Shown in pieces: positions 6,792-33,409 of a DNA stretch of 64,000 nt. Position 1 is the first letter of the stretch. The number at the start of each line of letters is the position of its first letter. This DNA is from a phage: the sequence record PZ019085.1; one strand, given 5' to 3'. Under the pieces are notes generated by a model that saw nothing but the letters and a program-made list of their open reading frames with translations, made no database searches and was not told the DNA's origin. The translations under genes were made by a program, and so were the position numbers.

Positions 6792-8596
6792 TATGCAATC
6801 CTTACCCAACGGTATACAGTTATAGATGGCTGAATATTAGTTATAGAACGCGCTGGAACATGAGATCCATTAGTCTTTGCATGGTCTTCACGATATTTAG
6901 TGTAAATAGGTCCTTCTTCATCTGGGTCATATTGACAACCGCCTATAATTACTGTACCATTATCATCAGAAATAAGAACCTTTTCATCGGTTTGTGTAGC
7001 TGGTAAATCAGCATTTTCTAATGTGATGGTTGTTACACCAACGGTCCCACCTGCGGTATGAGTAGGGTTACCATTGATGTCAAGGTCATTATTATTTAAT
7101 GCAAAATTAGGATCTGACGCGTCATCATTCCAACCTGCTAATACTTTGCCTTGACCCCAAATTTTCCACGAACCAAAACCTAAATAAGTTGCCGGATTAT
7201 TAGGGTTAACCGCATTTTCGTAAATAGTCCCGACAGGATAAATTGTGTCAAATATTGCTGAGATAGTCGAGAATTCACGTTCATATGTAGGAACAGGTTC
7301 TACATTAGGCCAGCCAATTTTATCAAAATCGGTTAATGCAACATCGCCAGTAATTTCAATGTTAGACCCTTGAGAAACATATTTCTCGTCAGTGGCATCA
7401 AGGATTTCTTCCATTTCAAGAAGAGTTCCTAAATCGTTATTAAACCATGTGATGGTAATAATGTCTTGGTCTTCAAATTGACGGTCAAACAGAATTGCGC
7501 TAGGGATATTATCGGTATACTCAATCGCATAATCTGTATACGATTGAGTCCATGTCCCGCCGAGATTAGCGCATGACTCTTCAGAATCAGCATCTACACC
7601 TTCACAACGGAAAATAGGAGTTCCAACAGTACCAGCTAATTCTTGGAGAATACCGTTGAAGCGAACTTCTAATGAATTAGGGTTAGGTGGTTCTGTAGGA
7701 TTAATACCAAATGCTGTAAATGGAATAGACCGGAACGTACTCAAATCAGTGACGTAAATACTTCCATCAATAGACTTTTTAGCAGTCAATTTACTATCTA
7801 AAATGCGAACTTGGCGACGAGTATATGAACTACGCCACTGAGAAACACCATCTAGGAACGTCTCAATTTGTACGGTGTCGCCAACATTACATGGTTGGCG
7901 TAATCTAATATTAAATCCATCAAGTGCAACCAGTTCACCAGGATTAGCGCCTGGAGAACCAAAATCACTATTATCACTGAATACATCACCATAATACAAT
8001 TCGTTGCCACGATGTTTTACGCGAATGTTGTTAACGTTATAAGAGGTCCCGTTAAAAACATCCATGAAATCGGTCTGACCTTGGGTTTCAACCAGATATT
8101 CTCTACGAGCAACATTACTAATGTCAGAGCTAACTATTTTATCAATTTGTTTGTTCTTGATGTATTCCCAACGTCCAGGAGCACAATAAACTAATTCTAA
8201 ATCAGAGAACTGAACGTTAATTTCTACTGGAGATGAAGAACCTTTAATCGTGTCCCCGTTTGCCGGAATTAAAGTAACAGGGTTAATGTTCCAAGTTGCA
8301 AATACGTCACGAGCACGAATAACTTTATTATAGTCTGCAATCGTCCCTTTAGGAAGATTTACTGAAACTCGTCCAGAAGTAGTATTAATTGCATAAGATT
8401 TACCCCAAGCGGCCTTAAGATTAAGACCATCAGCCGCATCATAAGTCTTCCATGCGCCAGCGGCATAAGGAACTTCACCATCACCTAATTCATAATAGAG
8501 TTCGTCAAAGTTCTCGTTTATTTTTTCACCACCTCGACGAAGGTAATCGCCTTGTCCGTCATCAACGACGTTACCAATTTTAATATTTTGTTTCAT
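6791..8596 (-). CDS. 10: baseplate wedge / short tail fibre attachment protein (T4 gp10-like)
   Basis: 601-aa ORF; size and synteny of T4 gp10. Confidence 0.85.
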
Positions 8597-9468
8597 TATT
8601 GAGCGACCCCAATTTTCTGAGTTGAGATAATTTTAACTGCTGAACGTAATCCAATAATATCGGATGTAATCGTCATAGTAGCAAAGTTGTTAATAATACT
8701 AAAGCTAATATTAGCAATCTCGTCGGTTTCATCTACATTACCAACTCGCATTACTGCAAATTCGGTAGAAAGAACTTCTGAGTTAATTGTATCTATTAGA
8801 ATATTTATTTCACATGTTTTTATTTTTCTACCGTCAGCGGATTGGCATGTAACAAGCAATTTAGCCATGTTATAATCTGTGCGATAAAAGAGAGGAATAG
8901 AAACTGTGTTTCCTGTAAGACTCCAAGTCCCATCGACAGGAGATTCTTTCTGCCCAAACATGCTATCAGTAGAATAATTCCATACCGAAGTTGGCCCATT
9001 AATTTCAACACAACGAAGAACAACATGGGTATAAGGGGTGGAAATAACAAGATTATTAAGAACACCTTTAATCGAACCATCAGTTACTTGGATACTTAAA
9101 GGATTGTTAACAGAAATAGACCCATTAGAGTTTATGAATTCTACAGAGTCACCTAATTCAGGACGGTCAATAATAACAATCACACCGCCATCAGAAGCAT
9201 CAATATCATGCATCGTGCCGGGTTTAATAGGAGTTTGATAATCGACCGCCTTTCCTTTTTGATAATAGCCTGTGGCATGAATAGTTTGACCTGTGGGCCC
9301 GGTTCCATCTGCTACAGCCATTTTACGTTGATCGCCAAATGCATTGTAAATAGCGTTGATATCGTCATTTATTTTATTACCACCGTCGAATAAGATATCA
9401 CCTGTTGAGGCATTACCAATTTCGCCGGTATCGATTAATTGTTTAGGAGTTTGCTTAAAAAATGCCAT
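8596..9468 (-). CDS. 9: baseplate wedge / long tail fibre connector (T4 gp9-like)
   Basis: 290-aa ORF MAFFKQTPKQLIDTGEIGNAS...; synteny; start ATG at 9466-9468. Confidence 0.85.
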   Translation of the reverse strand: MAFFKQTPKQLIDTGEIGNASTGDILFDGGNKINDDINAIYNAFGDQRKMAVADGTGPTGQTIHATGYYQKGKAVDYQTPIKPGTMHDIDASDGGVIVIIDRPELGDSVEFINSNGSISVNNPLSIQVTDGSIKGVLNNLVISTPYTHVVLRCVEINGPTSVWNYSTDSMFGQKESPVDGTWSLTGNTVSIPLFYRTDYNMAKLLVTCQSADGRKIKTCEINILIDTINSEVLSTEFAVMRVGNVDETDEIANISFSIINNFATMTITSDIIGLRSAVKIISTQKIGVAQ

Positions 9469-9500
9469 AATTCTGCCTTTTGTTGTCCTATATTATATTC

Positions 9501-20175: not shown

Positions 20176-20760
20176 ATGACTCGTCCAGCGAGACAGATTT
20201 TTAACCAAACAAATATAACAAACTTTGTTGTGGATATCCCAGATAGTACACGAACTTCAGGTTTTGTGCTCAATGCCCAAACGGCACCATTACCAGGTGT
20301 GAGAATTCCTGTTGTTGAAACTGTGACAGGCACAATGGGGTTAGGACGTGCAATGCGTGCAGGCACCACATTTGAATATGACCCTTTTATTGTACGATTT
20401 ATAGTTGATGAAGACATGACGTCCTGGATGAACATGTATAAATGGATGCTCAGCACTAATAACTATATAACTGGCCATAATACTGCACACTCTGATGGTC
20501 CTGAGTTTGTTACTTTGCACATTTTAAACAACAATAAGACCGAAGTAGTTTTGACGGCAAATTTCTATAAACCATGGATTTCTGATTTGAGTGAAATTGA
20601 ATTTAGTTACACTGAAGACTCTGACCCTGCCGTTACTTGCGTAGCAACTATTCATTACGCGTATATGACGATAGAAAAAGATGGCGAAGTCATTGTATCT
20701 CAACAACCACGTCAAGCGGTCGAATCTAAATCCATTTCTAGACACCCTTCCTTGCGTTAA
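20176..20760 (+). CDS. 3: tail completion / sheath stabiliser (T4 gp3-like)
   Basis: 194 aa from ATG 20176 (SD GAGG); position between 2 and 1 as in T4. Confidence 0.8.
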   Translation: MTRPARQIFNQTNITNFVVDIPDSTRTSGFVLNAQTAPLPGVRIPVVETVTGTMGLGRAMRAGTTFEYDPFIVRFIVDEDMTSWMNMYKWMLSTNNYITGHNTAHSDGPEFVTLHILNNNKTEVVLTANFYKPWISDLSEIEFSYTEDSDPAVTCVATIHYAYMTIEKDGEVIVSQQPRQAVESKSISRHPSLR

Positions 20761-24109: not shown

Positions 24110-24184
24110 GGCCCTGTAGCTCAATGGGAGAGCTGTCAGCTCATAACTGATAGGTAGCTGGATCGAAACCAGCCAGGGTCACCA
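24110..24184 (+). tRNA. tRNA with CAU anticodon (Met or Ile2)
   Basis: hand-folded cloverleaf: acceptor GGCCCTG/CAGGGTC, D-arm GCTC-AATGGGA-GAGC, anticodon stem GTCAG/CTGAT with loop CTCATAA, T-arm GCTGG-ATCGAAA-CCAGC, encoded CCA. Confidence 0.75.
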
Positions 24185-24187
24185 ATC

Positions 24188-24264
<77 letters not shown>

Positions 24265-26560: not shown

Positions 26561-26595
26561 TTTACAAACTCTTGAGAGCAGAGTATAATGCTCTC
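26561..26595 (+). promoter_or_regulatory. sigma70-like promoter inside an inverted repeat
   Basis: TTTACA, 17-bp spacer, TATAAT; palindrome GAGAGCAGAG-TATAAT-GCTCTC; near-identical copy at 56751-56792. Confidence 0.6.
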
Positions 26596-26630: not shown

Positions 26631-27224
26631 ATGAACACACTGAAGAAACTTGTTGAATTCATCCGCACTAAACTGGGTACCGCTATGGCTAAAAATCTGA
26701 CTGTCGAAGAACAGTATAACGCAGCTGCAGATAAGTTGATTACCCAAATCAAAGAACTAAAAACGGCTTCTGTTAAATCTATTAATGAAGAAAAACGTAT
26801 TCGTGAACTTGTTAATGAAAAGAACAAACAAGCCGCTTCTAAGGAACGTGAAATTCGTAAGCTCCTGGCTGAAGGACAGGATGTTACCATGCATGCTAAG
26901 CTTGGTCTTCTGTATCGTCGAACTGCCGAACAACTTAATACAAAAGCTGACGGGTATGCCGCTATGCGAATTGAAATTGCTCGTAAGGTGGTTGAACTTG
27001 ACGATGCTCGTCAGAACCTGGCAATCAAACTCGAATACATTCGTGAAACTCGAGCAGCCAATGCCCTTGGTATCTCTACGGCTGATGATGTAATTGAAAT
27101 CGCTGCACTGACTAAGGTTGATATCGAAGACACTCTGACTCGTGTTGAAACGTTCAATGGCACTCCAGCTGGTGTCGAAACCACTTCTGCTGATGTACAA
27201 GAATATATTAACTCTTTGAAATAA
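26631..27224 (+). CDS. coiled-coil protein, hypothetical
   Basis: 197 aa from ATG 26631; largely helical, charged heptad-like sequence. Confidence 0.6.
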
Positions 27225-27273: not shown

Positions 27274-27870
27274 ATGCGAAACCAAAATAATGATATTGAC
27301 TCAATGTTCGAAGAGTTCCGAAATAAGGTAAATCCACCTACGTCTTTAGTTGATTCATTACGATATGTTGCAACTGGACGTAAATGGTACTGGTCGTCTT
27401 CTTATGAGACCACTGAATATGCAAATCGCCGAAAATCTTTATTAGCCCCAGGTATTATGATTCATGATATCGGAGCTATTGCTAAACTAGTTGCAGACCA
27501 TGATATTAGATTCACCGATTTCGTTGCTCCTACGTGGTCTGTTTGTTGTTTAAACACTGAATTGGAATATATCAGCGAACGCTCTGAAGATTATTATGGT
27601 TTTAGAGATAAGCTTCTGAGGTCTAATATGTTTTATATCGATACAGAAGTTCTAGTCGATAATAAAAAATATTACTTTACGTTAATCGTCGATTCTGAAA
27701 CTATGTATGAAGGCAAGCCCTTGCTTAAAAGAGTTGATGCTTTAAGTGCTATTGATGCGCTTTATGAAACCATGATTGTTAGTCCTAATTTCACTAACAA
27801 TTTAATCCTTGAGCAATTTATTATGGAATGTAGAGAATATGTCAAAGCCAACCCTGTACATGCCAATTAA
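27274..27870 (+). CDS. hypothetical protein
   Basis: 198 aa from ATG 27274 (SD AAAGGAG). Confidence 0.6.
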   Translation: MRNQNNDIDSMFEEFRNKVNPPTSLVDSLRYVATGRKWYWSSSYETTEYANRRKSLLAPGIMIHDIGAIAKLVADHDIRFTDFVAPTWSVCCLNTELEYISERSEDYYGFRDKLLRSNMFYIDTEVLVDNKKYYFTLIVDSETMYEGKPLLKRVDALSAIDALYETMIVSPNFTNNLILEQFIMECREYVKANPVHAN

Positions 27871-28234
27871 GCCCTGGGCATACGAATACAAACGTAAATT
27901 AATCCCAAACGAAGTACTATTTGGCCCTATTTTAGCTTTAGCATTTTTAATCTTTATGATTATAGGAGCTATTTTAGATTCCAATAAAGTTATATCGTCT
28001 GATGCAGCGTTTTCATTAATGTTCGTCGCACCACTTATTGTACCATTTTTATTAATGCCTATTAACTGGGTGGGATATTGGTACCAAGGCCGTCATCACA
28101 GAGCCCGATTAAGAGAATGGAAAGTTCAGTGCGCAAAAGCCCAAGCTCAGTATGATGAAGCTGTTAAAAAGTATGAATATGAAGAAGCTATGGAATTCGT
28201 TAAGGAAATAAGATGCAAAAGCCTCAGCTCTTAA
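27839..28234 (+). CDS. membrane protein, C-terminal EFVKEIRCK motif family
   Basis: 131 aa; two predicted TM helices; C-terminus EAMEFVKEIRCKSLSS related to the C-termini of ORFs 28213, 30721 and 31714; alternative start 27860. Confidence 0.55.
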   Translation: MSKPTLYMPIKPWAYEYKRKLIPNEVLFGPILALAFLIFMIIGAILDSNKVISSDAAFSLMFVAPLIVPFLLMPINWVGYWYQGRHHRARLREWKVQCAKAQAQYDEAVKKYEYEEAMEFVKEIRCKSLSS

Positions 28235-28572
28235 CCGTACGGCCTTCTCTTGGTGAGAACATTCTAATTTTTATTATGAGTATTGGCATGGGATTTGCCT
28301 TTGGATTAGTTGGATTTCTTATTGACGGCGTTGTGTTAGGATTTATAGGGAACACTGGTGGATTCACAGACCAATGGCAGGACTTACGGTATACCCAAGC
28401 CTTTGCATCCATCGCATCATTTTGTACTGTAGTCTATTTTTACTACGATTTTATAAACCATAACAAGAAAAATAAAAAGGTTTACGCTTCTCAAATGGTT
28501 AGTTATAATGAACTTCTAGCTAAACGTGAAAATGAAACAATCGAAAACTTTATTAAGGAATGTAGAAAATGA
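28213..28572 (+). CDS. membrane protein, C-terminal ENFIKECRK motif family
   Basis: 119 aa; TM helices FIMSIGMGFAFGLVGFLIDGVVLGFIG; C-terminus ...NETIENFIKECRK. Confidence 0.6.
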   Translation: MQKPQLLTVRPSLGENILIFIMSIGMGFAFGLVGFLIDGVVLGFIGNTGGFTDQWQDLRYTQAFASIASFCTVVYFYYDFINHNKKNKKVYASQMVSYNELLAKRENETIENFIKECRK

Positions 28573-28874
28573 GTAAGATTATTGAAATTAAAGTACCAGA
28601 GTTTAATGATGCCAAATCCGCTTCAGATGCAATTTATAAACTTCTGAATCAAGCTGAACGTATCGAAGAAGAAGCAACAAAGATCGCAGACCAATATGCC
28701 GTATCATTTTCTGTAGGTGATTATGGTAGCGGTCGTACTTATTATCCTAAGGGTGAAATCGTATCCCAGTGGATGAAAAATGAAATTGAAAATAATGGTG
28801 GCGATGTTAAGCGTGAAGGTAATGGTTACGTTATTACTGAAGGTGCTTGGGTTTCGTCTTCTGCGTTGTGCTAA
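28569..28874 (+). CDS. small protein, GWVSSSxxC paralog 1
   Basis: 101 aa ending ...EGAWVSSSALC; shares GDYGSGRTYYPKGE-like motif and C-terminus with the next two ORFs. Confidence 0.6.
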   Translation: MSKIIEIKVPEFNDAKSASDAIYKLLNQAERIEEEATKIADQYAVSFSVGDYGSGRTYYPKGEIVSQWMKNEIENNGGDVKREGNGYVITEGAWVSSSALC

Positions 28875-28883
28875 GGAATCATT

Positions 28884-29156
28884 ATGTCTAAAGAACAAAC
28901 CGAACTGGCCGAAGCTGTAGCAAAAATCTATGCAGCTATTGAGGCTGCCAAAGAAATTGCTGATAAACAAAACACAACATTCGATTTGTATCCAGCTTAT
29001 GGTATGGGTGGAACCTATCATTCACCCGGACAGCTTAAAGCCGATCTTGAACGTTGTACAAAAAACGGCTATGCTGAATGGGCCGACGTTTACCAATACG
29101 ACTACAACCTGAGCCTTGAAGATGGCGGTTGGGTTGCATCTTCTCACACTTGCTAA
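28884..29156 (+). CDS. small protein, GWVSSSxxC paralog 2
   Basis: 90 aa ending ...DGGWVASSHTC; internal YGMGGTYHSPGQ. Confidence 0.6.
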   Translation: MSKEQTELAEAVAKIYAAIEAAKEIADKQNTTFDLYPAYGMGGTYHSPGQLKADLERCTKNGYAEWADVYQYDYNLSLEDGGWVASSHTC

Positions 29157-29165
29157 GGAAACAAT

Positions 29166-29363
29166 ATGTCTCGTGAATTAGATTGTGCTGTACGTACCGC
29201 AGTAGCTGCCCTGGAAAACCTGTTCCAAATTGCAACAGAAGAACGCGAAGAAGTTACATTGTGGATTGAAGATAACGCAGGTCTGAATCTCCAGAACGCG
29301 ATCTCATTATCCAACAATAGTATCACTGTTCAAGGCTGGGTATCATCTAGTTATTCTTGCTAA
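29166..29363 (+). CDS. small protein, GWVSSSxxC paralog 3
   Basis: 65 aa ending ...VQGWVSSSYSC. Confidence 0.55.
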   Translation: MSRELDCAVRTAVAALENLFQIATEEREEVTLWIEDNAGLNLQNAISLSNNSITVQGWVSSSYSC

Positions 29364-29367
29364 AACA

Positions 29368-29406
29368 GTTTACAACAAGATAGGGCTATGTTATAGTAGT
29401 CCTATC
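29368..29406 (+). promoter_or_regulatory. early promoter with inverted repeat (PeSL-like cassette)
   Basis: GTTTACAACAAGATAGGGCTATGTTATAGTAGTCCTATC; about 90% identical to the copy at 22607. Confidence 0.55.
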
Positions 29407-29425
29407 AAATTAAACGGAGTCCACA

Positions 29426-29665
29426 ATGATTTATTACGAAAGTATTGGAACCGAAGTGGTTGCTAAAACCATTACTCGTGAAAAGTTTGCAAAGATATTC
29501 GATATGCGTTATAAAAAATCTGAACACAAAGGCATCCGATTTGAAGATGCACACTGCACAATTTGCCCTTATAATGAAGACATAAACGGTACAATCGTTC
29601 CATTGGTAGAGGCTTCACATGATGACCTCTGGGATGAATATGATATCGCATGTCGTGAAATTTAA
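29426..29665 (+). CDS. hypothetical protein
   Basis: 79-aa ORF; Cys/His pair ...HCTICPYNED... Confidence 0.55.
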   Translation: MIYYESIGTEVVAKTITREKFAKIFDMRYKKSEHKGIRFEDAHCTICPYNEDINGTIVPLVEASHDDLWDEYDIACREI

Positions 29666-29693
29666 GTTAATGAATTAATCCGAGGAAAATATT

Positions 29694-30650
29694 ATGATGT
29701 TAGTTATTGGTTCTCGTGCACTTCACTATCATGGTCTTATTGATTCTAGCGCTATCAAAAATAGCGATTGGGACTTTATTGCGGACCAAGGTTCTTGGAA
29801 TGCATTCAAAAATCAAATGATGGGTGTATATGTTCACCAAGATAACCCTGATGTCCAAGTTTTCAAATGCTTCCATAATGGACGCGAAACTCATTTTGAA
29901 GCATATATTGTTCCGGCAATCACTAATGTCCGTGAATTAGTCGGTGAACTCACTCCTGAAGATTTCACGTCTTCTTATGACCTTTTAAAATACGCCAAGA
30001 AAAATTTGACTAAAGATCGTTTGACCGGGTTTTACTGGGCAACTCCTGAGATATGTCTTGCAATTAAAATGTCTCATCGTTTCAAGAAAAATAATCCATT
30101 CTTTTTAAAGACTATGAACCATATTCAGTATCTTCGTGGTAAAGGTGTTACACTGAACGATGAACTTACTGAAATTATGCTGAAACGCCAGAAAGAAACC
30201 TTGAATTATGCTCACCCAGTTCTTGACACTTCTAAAAGTGCGTTCTTTAAAGATGACATCTATACATATGACCATGATACTATTCATGAAGCCATTGCAC
30301 TAACAGACCGCCCAGCGTATACATTTTATATGAAAGATGGTTCTGAAGTCATGACCTCACGCGAGAAGTTCGAATCATTACCGGAAATGGTCAAATTGGC
30401 CGGTGTATACGAAGAATCATGTGTACTAGCGTTAGAACGTTCTCAGATTCCTAATGACTTTAAAATTAACCCTGAAGCCAGTTTTATGATGGCATTGGAA
30501 AAAGTCTGTACAAGCATCACCTCTGGTTGGTTCCGTGAATACGCCTGGGAAAACTACAGCAAAGTAGTAAGTATGTACCAAAGCTTAGGACATGATGATT
30601 ACGTTAAACGTTTCAAACAAAATTTCCATATGGTAAAACCTTTCAAATAA
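29694..30650 (+). CDS. putative nucleotidyltransferase-fold protein
   Basis: 318 aa; N-terminal hhhGS...x14...SDWDF (MMLVIGSRALHYHG...NSDWDFIA) resembles the Pol-beta superfamily GS / DxD active-site pattern; remainder helical. Confidence 0.5.
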   Translation: MMLVIGSRALHYHGLIDSSAIKNSDWDFIADQGSWNAFKNQMMGVYVHQDNPDVQVFKCFHNGRETHFEAYIVPAITNVRELVGELTPEDFTSSYDLLKYAKKNLTKDRLTGFYWATPEICLAIKMSHRFKKNNPFFLKTMNHIQYLRGKGVTLNDELTEIMLKRQKETLNYAHPVLDTSKSAFFKDDIYTYDHDTIHEAIALTDRPAYTFYMKDGSEVMTSREKFESLPEMVKLAGVYEESCVLALERSQIPNDFKINPEASFMMALEKVCTSITSGWFREYAWENYSKVVSMYQSLGHDDYVKRFKQNFHMVKPFK

Positions 30651-30662
30651 TTTCGCAAAACT

Positions 30663-30700
30663 GTTTACACAATTATAGGACTATGTTATAGTAGTCCTAT
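30663..30700 (+). promoter_or_regulatory. early promoter with inverted repeat (PeSL-like cassette)
   Basis: GTTTACACAATTATAGGACTATGTTATAGTAGTCCTAT. Confidence 0.55.
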
Positions 30701-30720
30701 TAAAACATGAGGAGAATATT

Positions 30721-31026
30721 ATGAAATTAACAGAAACCAATCTAATCGGTCTTTTAACAATATTTGCATCACCTTTTTACGCAGCCCTTTCTGTTGCAGT
30801 ATTACAAAAGGCTTACGATATGGATGGTGTTCCTGGTTTTGTATTCTTATCACCATTTTTATTATTCGTCGGAGCATTGTTATTATATGCCACGACTAGT
30901 TTCGACCATAACGTCTGGGTCAATTATAAATGCAAATTGTCTGAAGAAGAACACGCAGAAGCTCGTAAAAAAGCTATTGAATCTACCAATCTAGAAAATT
31001 TCATTAAAGAATGTCGAGGAAAATAA
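30721..31026 (+). CDS. membrane protein, C-terminal ENFIKECRGK motif family
   Basis: 101 aa; two TM helices; C-terminus ...ESTNLENFIKECRGK. Confidence 0.6.
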   Translation: MKLTETNLIGLLTIFASPFYAALSVAVLQKAYDMDGVPGFVFLSPFLLFVGALLLYATTSFDHNVWVNYKCKLSEEEHAEARKKAIESTNLENFIKECRGK

Positions 31027-31027
31027 T

Positions 31028-31714
31028 ATGAATAGTTCTAAAGTGTTTAATAGCCAAGCTCGTGCAGTAGGTGGTTTTGCTGGTAAAATTTCTAATGATA
31101 AAATCAAAAACGAAACTATGTTCTTCAACAGCTCATTGGCTTTCGCTTTTGATAATGGTGGCCCAATTACTCGTAGCTTCATCATGAACTTGCCGGATGA
31201 TTGGAACACTGACCAGGTTGTATTTGATTCACGAGTCCACATGCTGATGCCTGGTTGGTATCCTGCTATTCCTGGATATCACCATGATGACGTACCACGT
31301 CCTGATATTCCAGTTGGTCAACACTTTATTACTGCAGGACAACCTGATTATGACAATCCTCGTTACCATTCTGAACATATTCTTGGTCTTGTTAACGCTG
31401 ATGTGTGTCCTACTCATTTTGCAACAGGAACTGCAGAGTTCAGTCAGATTCCTGATGGCGAACTTATCTATCGTCAGTGGCACAAAGAAGTCCTCGAAAA
31501 AATTGAAAAAGGTGAACTAGAGAAATGGGAAGCTCCAGATCGTACTCTTCTTCAGTTTGATTGGCAAACATGGCACACTGGTTCTCGTGCAATTAGTAAT
31601 GGATGGCGTTGGTTCGGACGTGTATCTCGTAATACAGACCGAGTTAAAAAGATTACCAATGAAATTCGTGTCAATGCCCAAGTTTATCTGGAATTCCCTA
31701 TGGAAGGCTGGTAA
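31028..31714 (+). CDS. hypothetical protein with His/Asp-rich motifs
   Basis: 228 aa; GWYPAIPGYHHDD and CPTHFATG motifs, Trp-rich C-terminus; no family recognised. Confidence 0.6.
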   Translation: MNSSKVFNSQARAVGGFAGKISNDKIKNETMFFNSSLAFAFDNGGPITRSFIMNLPDDWNTDQVVFDSRVHMLMPGWYPAIPGYHHDDVPRPDIPVGQHFITAGQPDYDNPRYHSEHILGLVNADVCPTHFATGTAEFSQIPDGELIYRQWHKEVLEKIEKGELEKWEAPDRTLLQFDWQTWHTGSRAISNGWRWFGRVSRNTDRVKKITNEIRVNAQVYLEFPMEGW

Positions 31715-32205
31715 TGATTAACAAAACATATTGGTCTAATATAGACGATGACAATGAAGGTATTTCATACTATTCAGTAGATTGGACAGGATGTCCATCC
31801 TACTTAGTGAAAAATATTTGCCAAGAATTTAAAATCGACCAGCCAGCAGGTATTATCGTGAACAGATACATTAATGGATATCAACCTATCGATGAAGTAA
31901 TACGAACAACTCAAGCTGAGCTTGAAAAGTTTTTCAATAAGTGCCAATGGATAACAGGATGGATTATATTTGTACCGTCTATATGGTTTTTCAGCACTAA
32001 GGTGAGTTCTTTCGGTTTTGTTGATATTATTGCTATCTTATTAGCATCTAGTATCATAAGTGTTGTTGGTGGCATCATTGGTGGCGGTACTGCAGCCATC
32101 ATTATTAATCTTGTTAAAAGTAGTTTACAGGAACGTAAAGACAAGATAAAGGCCAAGAATAATGAAGTTGAACGTTTTATTACCGAATGCAGGAATTTGA
32201 GATGA
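31714..32205 (+). CDS. membrane protein, C-terminal ERFITECR motif family
   Basis: 163 aa; TM segments WIIFVPSIWFF and IIAILLASSIISVVGGIIGGGTAAIII; C-terminus ...NNEVERFITECRNLR. Confidence 0.6.
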   Translation: MINKTYWSNIDDDNEGISYYSVDWTGCPSYLVKNICQEFKIDQPAGIIVNRYINGYQPIDEVIRTTQAELEKFFNKCQWITGWIIFVPSIWFFSTKVSSFGFVDIIAILLASSIISVVGGIIGGGTAAIIINLVKSSLQERKDKIKAKNNEVERFITECRNLR

Positions 32206-32895: not shown

Positions 32896-32917
32896 ACCTC
32901 CTATAAACGTGGGAGGT
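32896..32917 (+). promoter_or_regulatory. SD-sequestering hairpin with late-promoter-like octamer in the loop, upstream of e
   Basis: ACCTCC-TATAAACGTG-GGAGGT: the 3' arm contains the lysozyme SD GGAGG; loop holds TATAAACG (6/8 match to TATAAATA); T4 gene e is known to be controlled this way. Confidence 0.45.
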
Positions 32918-32920
32918 ATT

Positions 32921-33409
32921 ATGAATATATTTGAAATGCTTCGTAATGACGAAGGTCTTAGACTGTCTTTATACAAAGACACTGAAGGCTTTTGGACGAT
33001 TGGCATAGGCCATTTAGTAACAAAGAACCCGTCTTTAGCCGTAGCTAAAGCTGAACTTGACAGAATGATCGGACGTAAATGCAACGGTACAATTACCCTT
33101 GATGAGGCTGAAAAGCTATTTAATGAAGACGTTGATAAAGCCGTTCGCGGAATCTTGGGTAATGCTAAACTTAAACCGGTATATGATTCTTTAGATGCGG
33201 TTCGTCGATGTGCATTGGTCAATATGGTCTTCCAAATGGGTGTAGCAGGCGTCGCTGGTTTTACTAATTCTCTTCGTATGCTTCAGCAGAAACGTTGGGA
33301 TGAAGCGGCAGTAAATCTAGCCCAATCTAAATGGTATCGTCAGACACCTAATCGCGCGAAACGCGTAATCTCAACATTTAAAACAGGAACTTGGAAAGCG
33401 TATATATGA
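32921..33409 (+). CDS. e: endolysin (T4 lysozyme)
   Basis: 162 aa [32 protein letters not shown]...; close match to T4 lysozyme incl. catalytic E11, D20, T26 context. Confidence 0.95.

Follow-up and report, generated by a model that had tools for sequence, protein, structure and literature searches.

The 64,000-nucleotide stretch of phage DNA analysed here (sequence record PZ019085.1; hereafter the window) carries, in its e gene region, five genes whose proteins share a conserved charged tail of the form xFIKECR. This tail is a short amphipathic helix near the C-terminus, and it is the tail, not the protein body, that unifies the set. An earlier note on this DNA had described four of the genes as a family of small membrane proteins. 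Its four open reading frames were found on the + strand where it had placed them, and the quoted tails were confirmed, the first of them running on as ...EAMEFVKEIRCKSLSS. Our analysis bore out a set of small membrane proteins, each with two helices and the conserved charged tail, but a soluble protein of 198 amino acids (A) also carries the tail. The five genes, designated A to E, and the cores of their tails are as follows.

27274..27870, + strand: A, open reading frame for an e.5-like soluble protein of 198 amino acids, tail ...LEQFIMECREYVKANPVHAN (phrog_2607; PF26876)
27839..28234, + strand: B, e.4-like inner-membrane protein of 131 amino acids with two transmembrane segments, tail ...AMEFVKEIRCKSLSS (phrog_2604; PF26873)
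28213..28572, + strand: C, e.3-like inner-membrane protein of 119 amino acids with two transmembrane segments, tail ...IENFIKECRK (phrog_2330)
30721..31026, + strand: D, RB69 ORF133c-like membrane protein of 101 amino acids with two transmembrane segments, tail ...LENFIKECRGK (phrog_9798)
31714..32205, + strand: E, e.2-like protein of 163 amino acids with two transmembrane segments, tail ...VERFITECRNLR (phrog_2203; PF26896)
27808..27834, + strand: tail core of A, LEQFIMECR
28187..28216, + strand: tail core of B, AMEFVKEIRC
28540..28566, + strand: tail core of C, IENFIKECR
30991..31017, + strand: tail core of D, LENFIKECR
32167..32193, + strand: tail core of E, VERFITECR

Judged by its sequence, the window is a Mosigvirus, an RB69-type member of the Tevenvirinae; the 5.1 kb surrounding the tail genes are 95-97% identical to Mosigvirus genomes (HX01, JS09, PhAPEC2, mogra). 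Comparison with annotated relatives and with T4 matched window positions 26.3-33.4 kb to the T4 block running from e.8 to e.2, nudE (e.1) and e. Every gene of this block is on the + strand. It is flanked by genes for tRNA-Met and tRNA-Arg (24110-24264) and by the lysozyme gene e (32909-33409), and A, B, C and E follow the T4 order between the tRNA genes and nudE/e. The region is hyperplastic and adjoins internal-protein genes and other accessory genes. In agreement with the earlier note, the tail genes are interleaved with unrelated genes in this early-transcribed region.

A, B, C and E are the Mosigvirus homologues of T4 e.5, e.4, e.3 and e.2 (Y06P, Y06O, Y06N and Y06M in UniProt), and D is the counterpart of RB69 ORF133c. 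A is 46% identical to T4-type e.5 across 95% of its length, matches phrog_2607 at E = 2e-93, has a precomputed Pfam match to PF26876 (Phage_T4_Y06P) on the identical gene in other contigs and lies directly downstream of an e.6 homologue. B matches phrog_2604 (E = 6e-63), aligns with T4 e.4 and has a precomputed match on the same gene to PF26873 (Phage_T4_Y06O). The cysteine in its tail is shifted two residues C-terminally, the same as in T4 e.4. C is 35-39% identical to the e.3 proteins of T4, T2 and T6 across 100% of its length (phrog_2330, E = 2e-49). The T4 e.2 family was defined as Pfam PF26896 together with phrog_2203 and phrog_35263, located directly upstream of the nudE block; E matches phrog_2203 at E = 4e-53 and PF26896 (Phage_T4_Y06M, precomputed on the same gene). 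E also aligns with the intact e.2 proteins of ZCEC15, Dhakavirus and Gaprivervirus, a family whose N-terminal domain has the pattern W..DD..GI...DW.GC. D is 96% identical to RB69 ORF133c, and tblastn returned it from 150 records, none less than 80% identical and every one of Mosigvirus type. The start of B overlaps the end of A by 32 nucleotides and the start of C overlaps the end of B by 22, which suggests that the translation of A, B and C is coupled.

The tails far exceed chance. The strict motif F[IV].E[CI]R has five matches in the 127,996 six-frame residues of the 64-kb window, compared with 0.21 expected from residue frequencies and a mean of 0.21 (maximum 2) in shuffled DNA. The five matches share the + strand, span no more than 4.4 kb (27.8-32.2 kb) and each sit in a real gene, 1-11 residues short of its stop codon. 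One of them, outside the four reading frames of the earlier note, belongs to the non-membrane protein A. A looser pattern, [FW][IVL]..[CM][RK] within the last 24 residues, added one match in the window, at 20524-20745 on the minus strand, which was rejected as spurious because it is antisense to the gene 3 homologue. In the RB69 genome beyond the window's coverage, no such tail was found except in two tiny out-of-frame reading frames. The tails are confined to a single gene cluster, in both the window and the RB69 genome.

A candidate sixth member, the 79-amino-acid reading frame at 29426-29665 (+ strand), ends ...EYDIACREI and was rejected as a chance resemblance. Its orthologues in four other phages end YDSARWDI, NDYVAEI or NTYCYEI. 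Beyond these genomes, a tail-only profile run against a word-indexed database of 5.8 billion proteins returned only fragments of the same phage families. An exhaustive HMMER search of 1.84 billion representatives gave nine matches, all but one from the same families; with 40 columns the profile has little power and may have overlooked distant carriers. A 2,691-amino-acid repeat protein containing ...ELMEFIKDC... was judged spurious, as the match is not C-terminal and lacks the CR pair.

The tail, which the earlier note did not recognise from T4, is present in that phage on e.5, e.4 and e.3, with a relic after e.2. In the translated T4 region, e.5 ends ...LLLEKFVKECREYVKAITIPSK (motif EKFVKECR), e.4 ends ...EIMKFVKESRCKSQS (KFVKESRC) and e.3 ends ...SMKEFVIDCRKIK (EFVIDCR). 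The annotated e.2 of T4 has 102 amino acids and no tail. Between e.2 and nudE, however, lies a frame that is not annotated and ends ...NLNNFITECRKLK, with the tail NNFITECRKLK. Comparison of T4 e.2 (NC_000866, 67491-67960) with the intact 162-amino-acid e.2 of ZCEC15 (9001-9489) showed a 1-nucleotide deletion in an A-run and a 1-nucleotide insertion about 70 nucleotides beyond it. The 102-amino-acid product and the separate tail-coding frame of T4 are thus explained by these two lesions, which could be a real laboratory-strain mutation or an old sequencing error. Whatever the function proves to be, the annotation is corrected in three respects: a fifth tail member is added to the set, the motif is present in T4 and e.2 is broken in the T4 reference.

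To establish the breadth of the tail, the e region was taken from 13 genomes of at least 11 genera and about 55 tails were collected. The phages sampled with tails, and the forms found in each, are listed below.

Tequatrovirus: FVKECR, FVKESRC, FV[IS]DCR, FITECR
Mosigvirus: FIMECR, FVKEIRC, FIKECR (twice), FITECR
Dhakavirus: FI[AT]ECR, FIKECK, FIKECR, FLEYCR
Gaprivervirus and Yersinia P8: FI[KA]ECR, FIKEVR, FIKECK, FIEECR
Kanagawavirus: FVDQCR, FIKNVR, FIKQCR or FIQMCR, FVKGCR (twice)
Moonvirus: FINLCR, FVMEMR, FIENCK, FIMQCR, FINSCR
Marfavirus: FIKHCR, FLKEMR, FIKYCR, FLELCR, WIKGCR, WVKGCR
Klebsiella Roth21: FIKYCR, FIKEVR, WIRSCR, WIKEMK, FIAKCR
Winklervirus: FVKMCR, FIKECR, FIKGCR, FIRGIR
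Biquartavirus (Aeromonas): FVDYCR

Many of these related phages carry four to six tail-bearing proteins per genome. Muldoonvirus and RB43 have the e.6 gene and no tails. The cross-genus core is Phi-x-x-[F/W]-[I/V/L]-x-x-[C]-[R/K], of which xFIKECR is the T-even form. Column counts, from a raw list of 58 hits of which a few are spurious short reading frames, were as follows.

Position -3: L 22, I 9, V 6, F 6
Position 0: F 54, W 4
Position +1: I 38, V 15, L 5
Position +4: C 45, V 5, M 4, I 2, S 2
Position +5: R 53, K 5

The hydrophobic positions -3, 0, +1 and +4 (L/I, F, I/V and C) follow an i, i+3, i+4, i+7 spacing, which puts these residues on one face of an alpha-helix and identifies the tail as amphipathic. 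The motif lies 0-15 residues from the C-terminus. The earlier note had asked whether the tail is conserved in orthologues, and it is the best-conserved part of each family. In every family the nine tail columns have a mean pairwise identity of 0.56-0.70, compared with 0.19-0.35 elsewhere. For the e.5-type proteins, a profile built from four genera collected 47 proteins, 45 of which were aligned (approximately 20% identity). The tail and the residues just past it hold four of the seven invariant columns of this alignment, F182, C186, R187 and K191, the last being a lysine four residues past the motif arginine.

The bodies that carry the tail are unrelated. In pairwise BLAST comparisons of the five proteins, similarity was confined to the last 10-30 residues, and PHROG assignment placed them in five separate families of unknown function. 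The sole link between these families was a weak match of D to phrog_2203, the family of E, over the transmembrane-plus-tail part (E = 0.0019). BLAST and PHROG therefore did not find the homology across bodies that would make all five a single family. The carriers comprise soluble proteins of 180-270 amino acids, transmembrane hairpins, proteins with an N-terminal domain followed by transmembrane segments and, in other genera, soluble proteins of about 95-110 amino acids, so that a purely membrane family does not hold outside Mosigvirus either. Some members are closer to each other. B and C have in common an N-terminal MxKPxL motif, two transmembrane segments and the tail, and the M-x-K/R-P-x-L motif supports a paralogous relationship of the e.4-type and e.3-type proteins. 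In Kanagawavirus and Marfavirus a short paralogue of e.2 lies in tandem with it and has nearly the same tail.

The N-terminal motif of the e.4-type and e.3-type proteins reads MSKPTL and MQKPQL in the window (27839-27874 and 28213-28248) and MSKPSL and MQKPKL in T4 e.4 and e.3. In a database entry for phage OLB35 the N-terminal part is of e.3 type and the tail of e.4 type, in another entry e.4 is without its transmembrane region, and PTE-Eco05 (6842-6991) has truncated e.4 and e.3. These rearranged or deleted entries could be assembly errors or the result of real recombination within the cluster.

The four membrane members, B to E, are inner-membrane proteins with two transmembrane helices. 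The earlier note had allowed them one to three hydrophobic helices; each has two, uncharged and 16-27 residues long, and these together with the pattern of lysine and arginine fit the membrane insertion that it had proposed to check. The loops between them are of 7-25 residues with one K/R, the N-terminal regions have 1-7 K/R and the C-terminal regions 8-11. By the positive-inside rule, K/R-rich ends lie on the cytoplasmic side of the membrane, and both ends of B to E are predicted to be cytoplasmic. This placement of the tail agrees with its presence on soluble proteins. The distance from the second transmembrane segment to the tail is 24-45 residues. E has in addition a conserved N-terminal soluble domain of about 78 amino acids ahead of its transmembrane segments, and A has no transmembrane segment, being a soluble protein of alpha/beta type.

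Structure prediction and searches of known families added little. AlphaFold2 modelled A from the 45-sequence alignment with a mean pLDDT (predicted local distance difference test) of 59.6 and a tail helix of low confidence, and the model of E, from a shallow alignment, was unusable (mean pLDDT 40.5). A Foldseek search of the PDB with the A model placed small alarmone synthetases and nucleotidyltransferases on top, but with a best E of 0.1 and TM-scores below 0.3 these matches are not credible. Searches with the five proteins and their neighbours against a local copy of Pfam, NCBIfam, PADLOC and PDB sequences gave nothing meaningful.

It is the peptide and not the DNA that is under selection, as codon usage shows. 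Across 34 tails the motif arginine is encoded by AGA, AGG, CGA, CGC and CGT and the cysteine by TGT (17) and TGC (10), and the tails of C and D, identical in amino acids, differ at four synonymous sites. This bears on the idea that the conserved element is a nucleic-acid one and the peptide a by-product of a Shine-Dalgarno or initiation region, of an RNA structure that couples translation or of a microhomology for recombination. The position of the tail codons would suit such an element, as in every case they overlap the start of the next gene or lie 0-12 nucleotides upstream of it. The lysine at motif position 3 is also biased (AAG 14, AAA 5), AAG-GAA spells the Shine-Dalgarno sequence AAGGA and its spacing to the next ATG is suitable. 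The K-E codons may thus double as the ribosome-binding site of the overlapping downstream gene (28555-28572, 28202-28215 and related loci). However, the purine-rich stretch falls on the K-E codons in B and C but on R-G or R-N codons in D and E; in D the downstream start is more distant, the lysine codon is AAA and the Shine-Dalgarno sequence, GAGGA, lies further downstream. The RNAs of the five junctions fold no better than shuffled sequences (z +0.73, +0.08, +1.6, +1.0 and -1.6). With both arginine codon families and both cysteine codons in use, the need for a Shine-Dalgarno sequence biases the K-E codons at most. The nucleic-acid reading is largely refuted and we consider it very improbable.

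The five tail proteins are real, early-expressed accessory proteins. In T4, genes e.2-e.6 are transcribed as early RNA and mass spectrometry detected all of their proteins (PMC9697503, supplementary files 4 and 6); the peak is early for e.4 and e.5, in the middle period for e.2 and e.6, and late for e.3. A CRISPRi-ART screen classed all of T4 e.2-e.6 as 'Not Fit' (PMC11879866, supplementary file 15). In a limited literature search, the main texts contained nothing on the T4 e.x genes, and supplementary tables gave expression and fitness classes.

We tentatively favour the reading of the tail as a helix for docking or assembly that is common to the set, though we would put its chance at somewhat under a half. 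Early in infection, on the cytoplasmic side of the inner membrane, it would gather soluble and membrane members around one shared partner or join them to each other. The variable distance from motif to C-terminus (0-15 residues) fits an internal docking helix better than a signal that depends on the end of the protein. The role of such an assembly could be in membrane maintenance, exclusion, anti-defence or another process.

Several points weigh against a docking helix. We read 'Not Fit' as no fitness effect of e.2-e.5 knock-down in the laboratory host, so no phenotype anchors the function of these genes. The glutamate at motif position 4 (the E of FIKECR) is fixed in the T-even group only, its place being taken elsewhere by H, Y, L, G, Q, N, M or S. 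Within that group it is found in both the e.5-type and the e.2-type proteins, with other residues outside it, which is a weak hint of a common constraint from a single lineage. In the e.4 lineage V, I, S or M stands in place of the cysteine, which hence is not an obligatory chemical group. The single-chain AlphaFold2 models are of too low confidence to tell a tail packed in cis from a free one. Finally, some members are plain paralogues, as seen in the MxKPxL motif of B and C and the likeness of D to the transmembrane-plus-tail part of E, and a common motif could reflect inheritance of a structural element and need not imply a common partner.

This last possibility deserves to be weighed in its own right. 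The proteins would be diverged paralogues or domain-shuffled relatives in which the tail stabilises its own protein by capping or packing. The shared layout of B and C and the match of D to phrog_2203 are what it predicts, as are the tandem e.2-like pairs of other genera with their near-identical tails (FVKGCR twice, W[IV]KGCR twice). It accounts poorly for the same tail on soluble proteins with unrelated bodies, for a tail far better conserved than the segments needed for packing and for the variable length between second transmembrane segment and tail. We regard it as rather unlikely as the whole explanation. Slightly less likely again, and compatible with a docking helix since it concerns function, is the suggestion of the earlier note that the set is a superinfection-exclusion or anti-defence battery like Imm and Sp. 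The genes are expressed early, can be dispensed with and differ in content from genus to genus, and their region is hyperplastic. Kinship with Imm or Sp was not found, however: Pfam, PHROG, NCBIfam and PADLOC linked the tail proteins to neither of them and to no defence or exclusion family, imm and sp of RB69 are elsewhere (19.0 and 18.7 kb), and the tails are cytoplasmic while Sp acts in the periplasm. A more specific form of the docking reading, which we hold as doubtful, is that the tail is an assembly code for an early inner-membrane complex, in which the transmembrane-hairpin members would recruit the soluble e.5-type protein and the small soluble tail proteins of other genera, and the coiled-coil e.6 protein may participate. 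If true, T-even phages would have a membrane module that had escaped recognition, with one peptide handle for all members.

The tail might instead be a turnover signal, a degron or a recognition site for a protease or adaptor (e.g. FtsH, ClpXP or Lon) that gives the early set a common lifetime. It is near the C-terminus, cytoplasmic and followed by basic residues (CRK, CRGK, CRNLR, VRRK), and the T4 proteins peak at different times despite early RNA. The motif nevertheless forms no fixed C-terminal tag, given its variable distance from the end, and to our knowledge the tail is unlike ssrA or MuA-type C-terminal degrons. We consider this reading improbable. The remaining alternative, a site for the gp21 prohead protease or a capsid-targeting look-alike, is barely credible. 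FIKE|CR fits the (L/I)-x-E pattern, internal-protein genes with MKTY... N-termini are in the same window, and EFIAE of the internal-protein targeting peptide MKTYxEF(I/L)xE resembles NFIKE. But the motif is C-terminal, four of its five carriers are membrane proteins unable to enter proheads, and the glutamate is not conserved outside the T-even group; T4 e.3 has D in its place, and V rather than L/I two residues earlier.

Among known systems, T4 e.2-e.5 and RB69 ORF133c are direct homologues of the genes described here, with the same order, gene overlaps and tails, but they are catalogued as separate families and the reference T4 e.2 is truncated. A limited literature search found no record of a common tail motif in e.2-e.5 or ORF133c. 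What appears to be new is the common tail and the soluble member in the set; that the genes belong to catalogued, uncharacterised families was already known. The capsid-targeting sequence of T4 (IPI, IPII, IPIII and Alt) is likewise a short peptide on unrelated, fast-evolving accessory proteins of the same genome region. It differs in being N-terminal, removed by gp21 and of another consensus, and in sending soluble proteins into the prohead, whereas the tail here is C-terminal, cytoplasmic and mostly on membrane proteins. Imm and Sp of T4 are also small, early, envelope-associated proteins but share no sequence or family similarity with the tail proteins, and Sp is periplasmic. Bacterial docking motifs such as the clamp-binding motif and the C-terminal tail of SSB also put one short helix or peptide on many proteins that meet at one hub. 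Their sequences are unrelated to the tail, and the comparison is an analogy only.

Although no large lytic phage has been studied better than T4, about half of its genes lack a known function, e.2-e.5 among them. A peptide carried by four to six proteins per genome, and kept in at least 11 genera, means that several unrelated 'hypothetical proteins' can now be tested as one unit. Pfam and PHROGs file the tail proteins separately and miss their link.

Three promoter-like sites were found in the region by matching to the consensus of early-type promoters.

30664..30692, + strand: early-type sigma-70 promoter-like site just upstream of D, TTTACA-17 nucleotides-TATAGT (consensus match only)
26561..26589, + strand: early-type promoter-like site upstream of the e.6 homologue and A-B-C, TTTACA-17 nucleotides-TATAAT (consensus match only)
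29369: early-type promoter-like site ahead of the 79-amino-acid reading frame

The e.6 homologue (26631-27224, + strand), which has a hairpin 3' of it, encodes a coiled-coil protein of 197 amino acids. Conservation of the gene extends from phages of E. coli as far as those of Aeromonas and RB43, and it is always directly upstream of the e.5-type gene. A search of the PDB with an e.6 profile gave Vipp1 at E = 1.2, 4 and 9.9, all sub-threshold but co-linear end-to-end over residues 1-144. Comparison with E. coli PspA by hhalign gave a probability of 0.7% (with an approximate PspA sequence), and none of 11 e.6 homologues matched PspA_IM30 in Pfam. Homology of e.6 to PspA/Vipp1 is thus a weak lead.

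Other neighbours of the tail genes were also examined. A protein of 318 amino acids (29694-30650, + strand) matches the Pfam domains DUF7277 (E = 1e-27) and DUF7275 (E = 5e-79) and keeps its position in the cluster in most genera examined. Between D and E, a 228-amino-acid protein (31028-31714, + strand; phrog_1843) is unusually conserved, with about 80% identity in Aeromonas T4-like phages. Homologues that are 28-34% identical occur in mycobacteriophages, Gordonia phages, Bacillus phage G and others, and the homologue in Aeromonas 44RR has a different genome context. Three tandem small soluble paralogues of phrog_899 (28569-28874, 28884-29156 and 29166-29363, + strand) also lie amid the tail-bearing genes. 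All three have a second motif at the extreme C-terminus, G[AG]WV[SA]SSxxC. Klebsiella phage Potts1 has five phrog_899-like genes, whose products end EGAWVSSSDMC, GGWVSSSMEC, IWHPSSC, FWYSSSMQNC and GWQSSSSDC.

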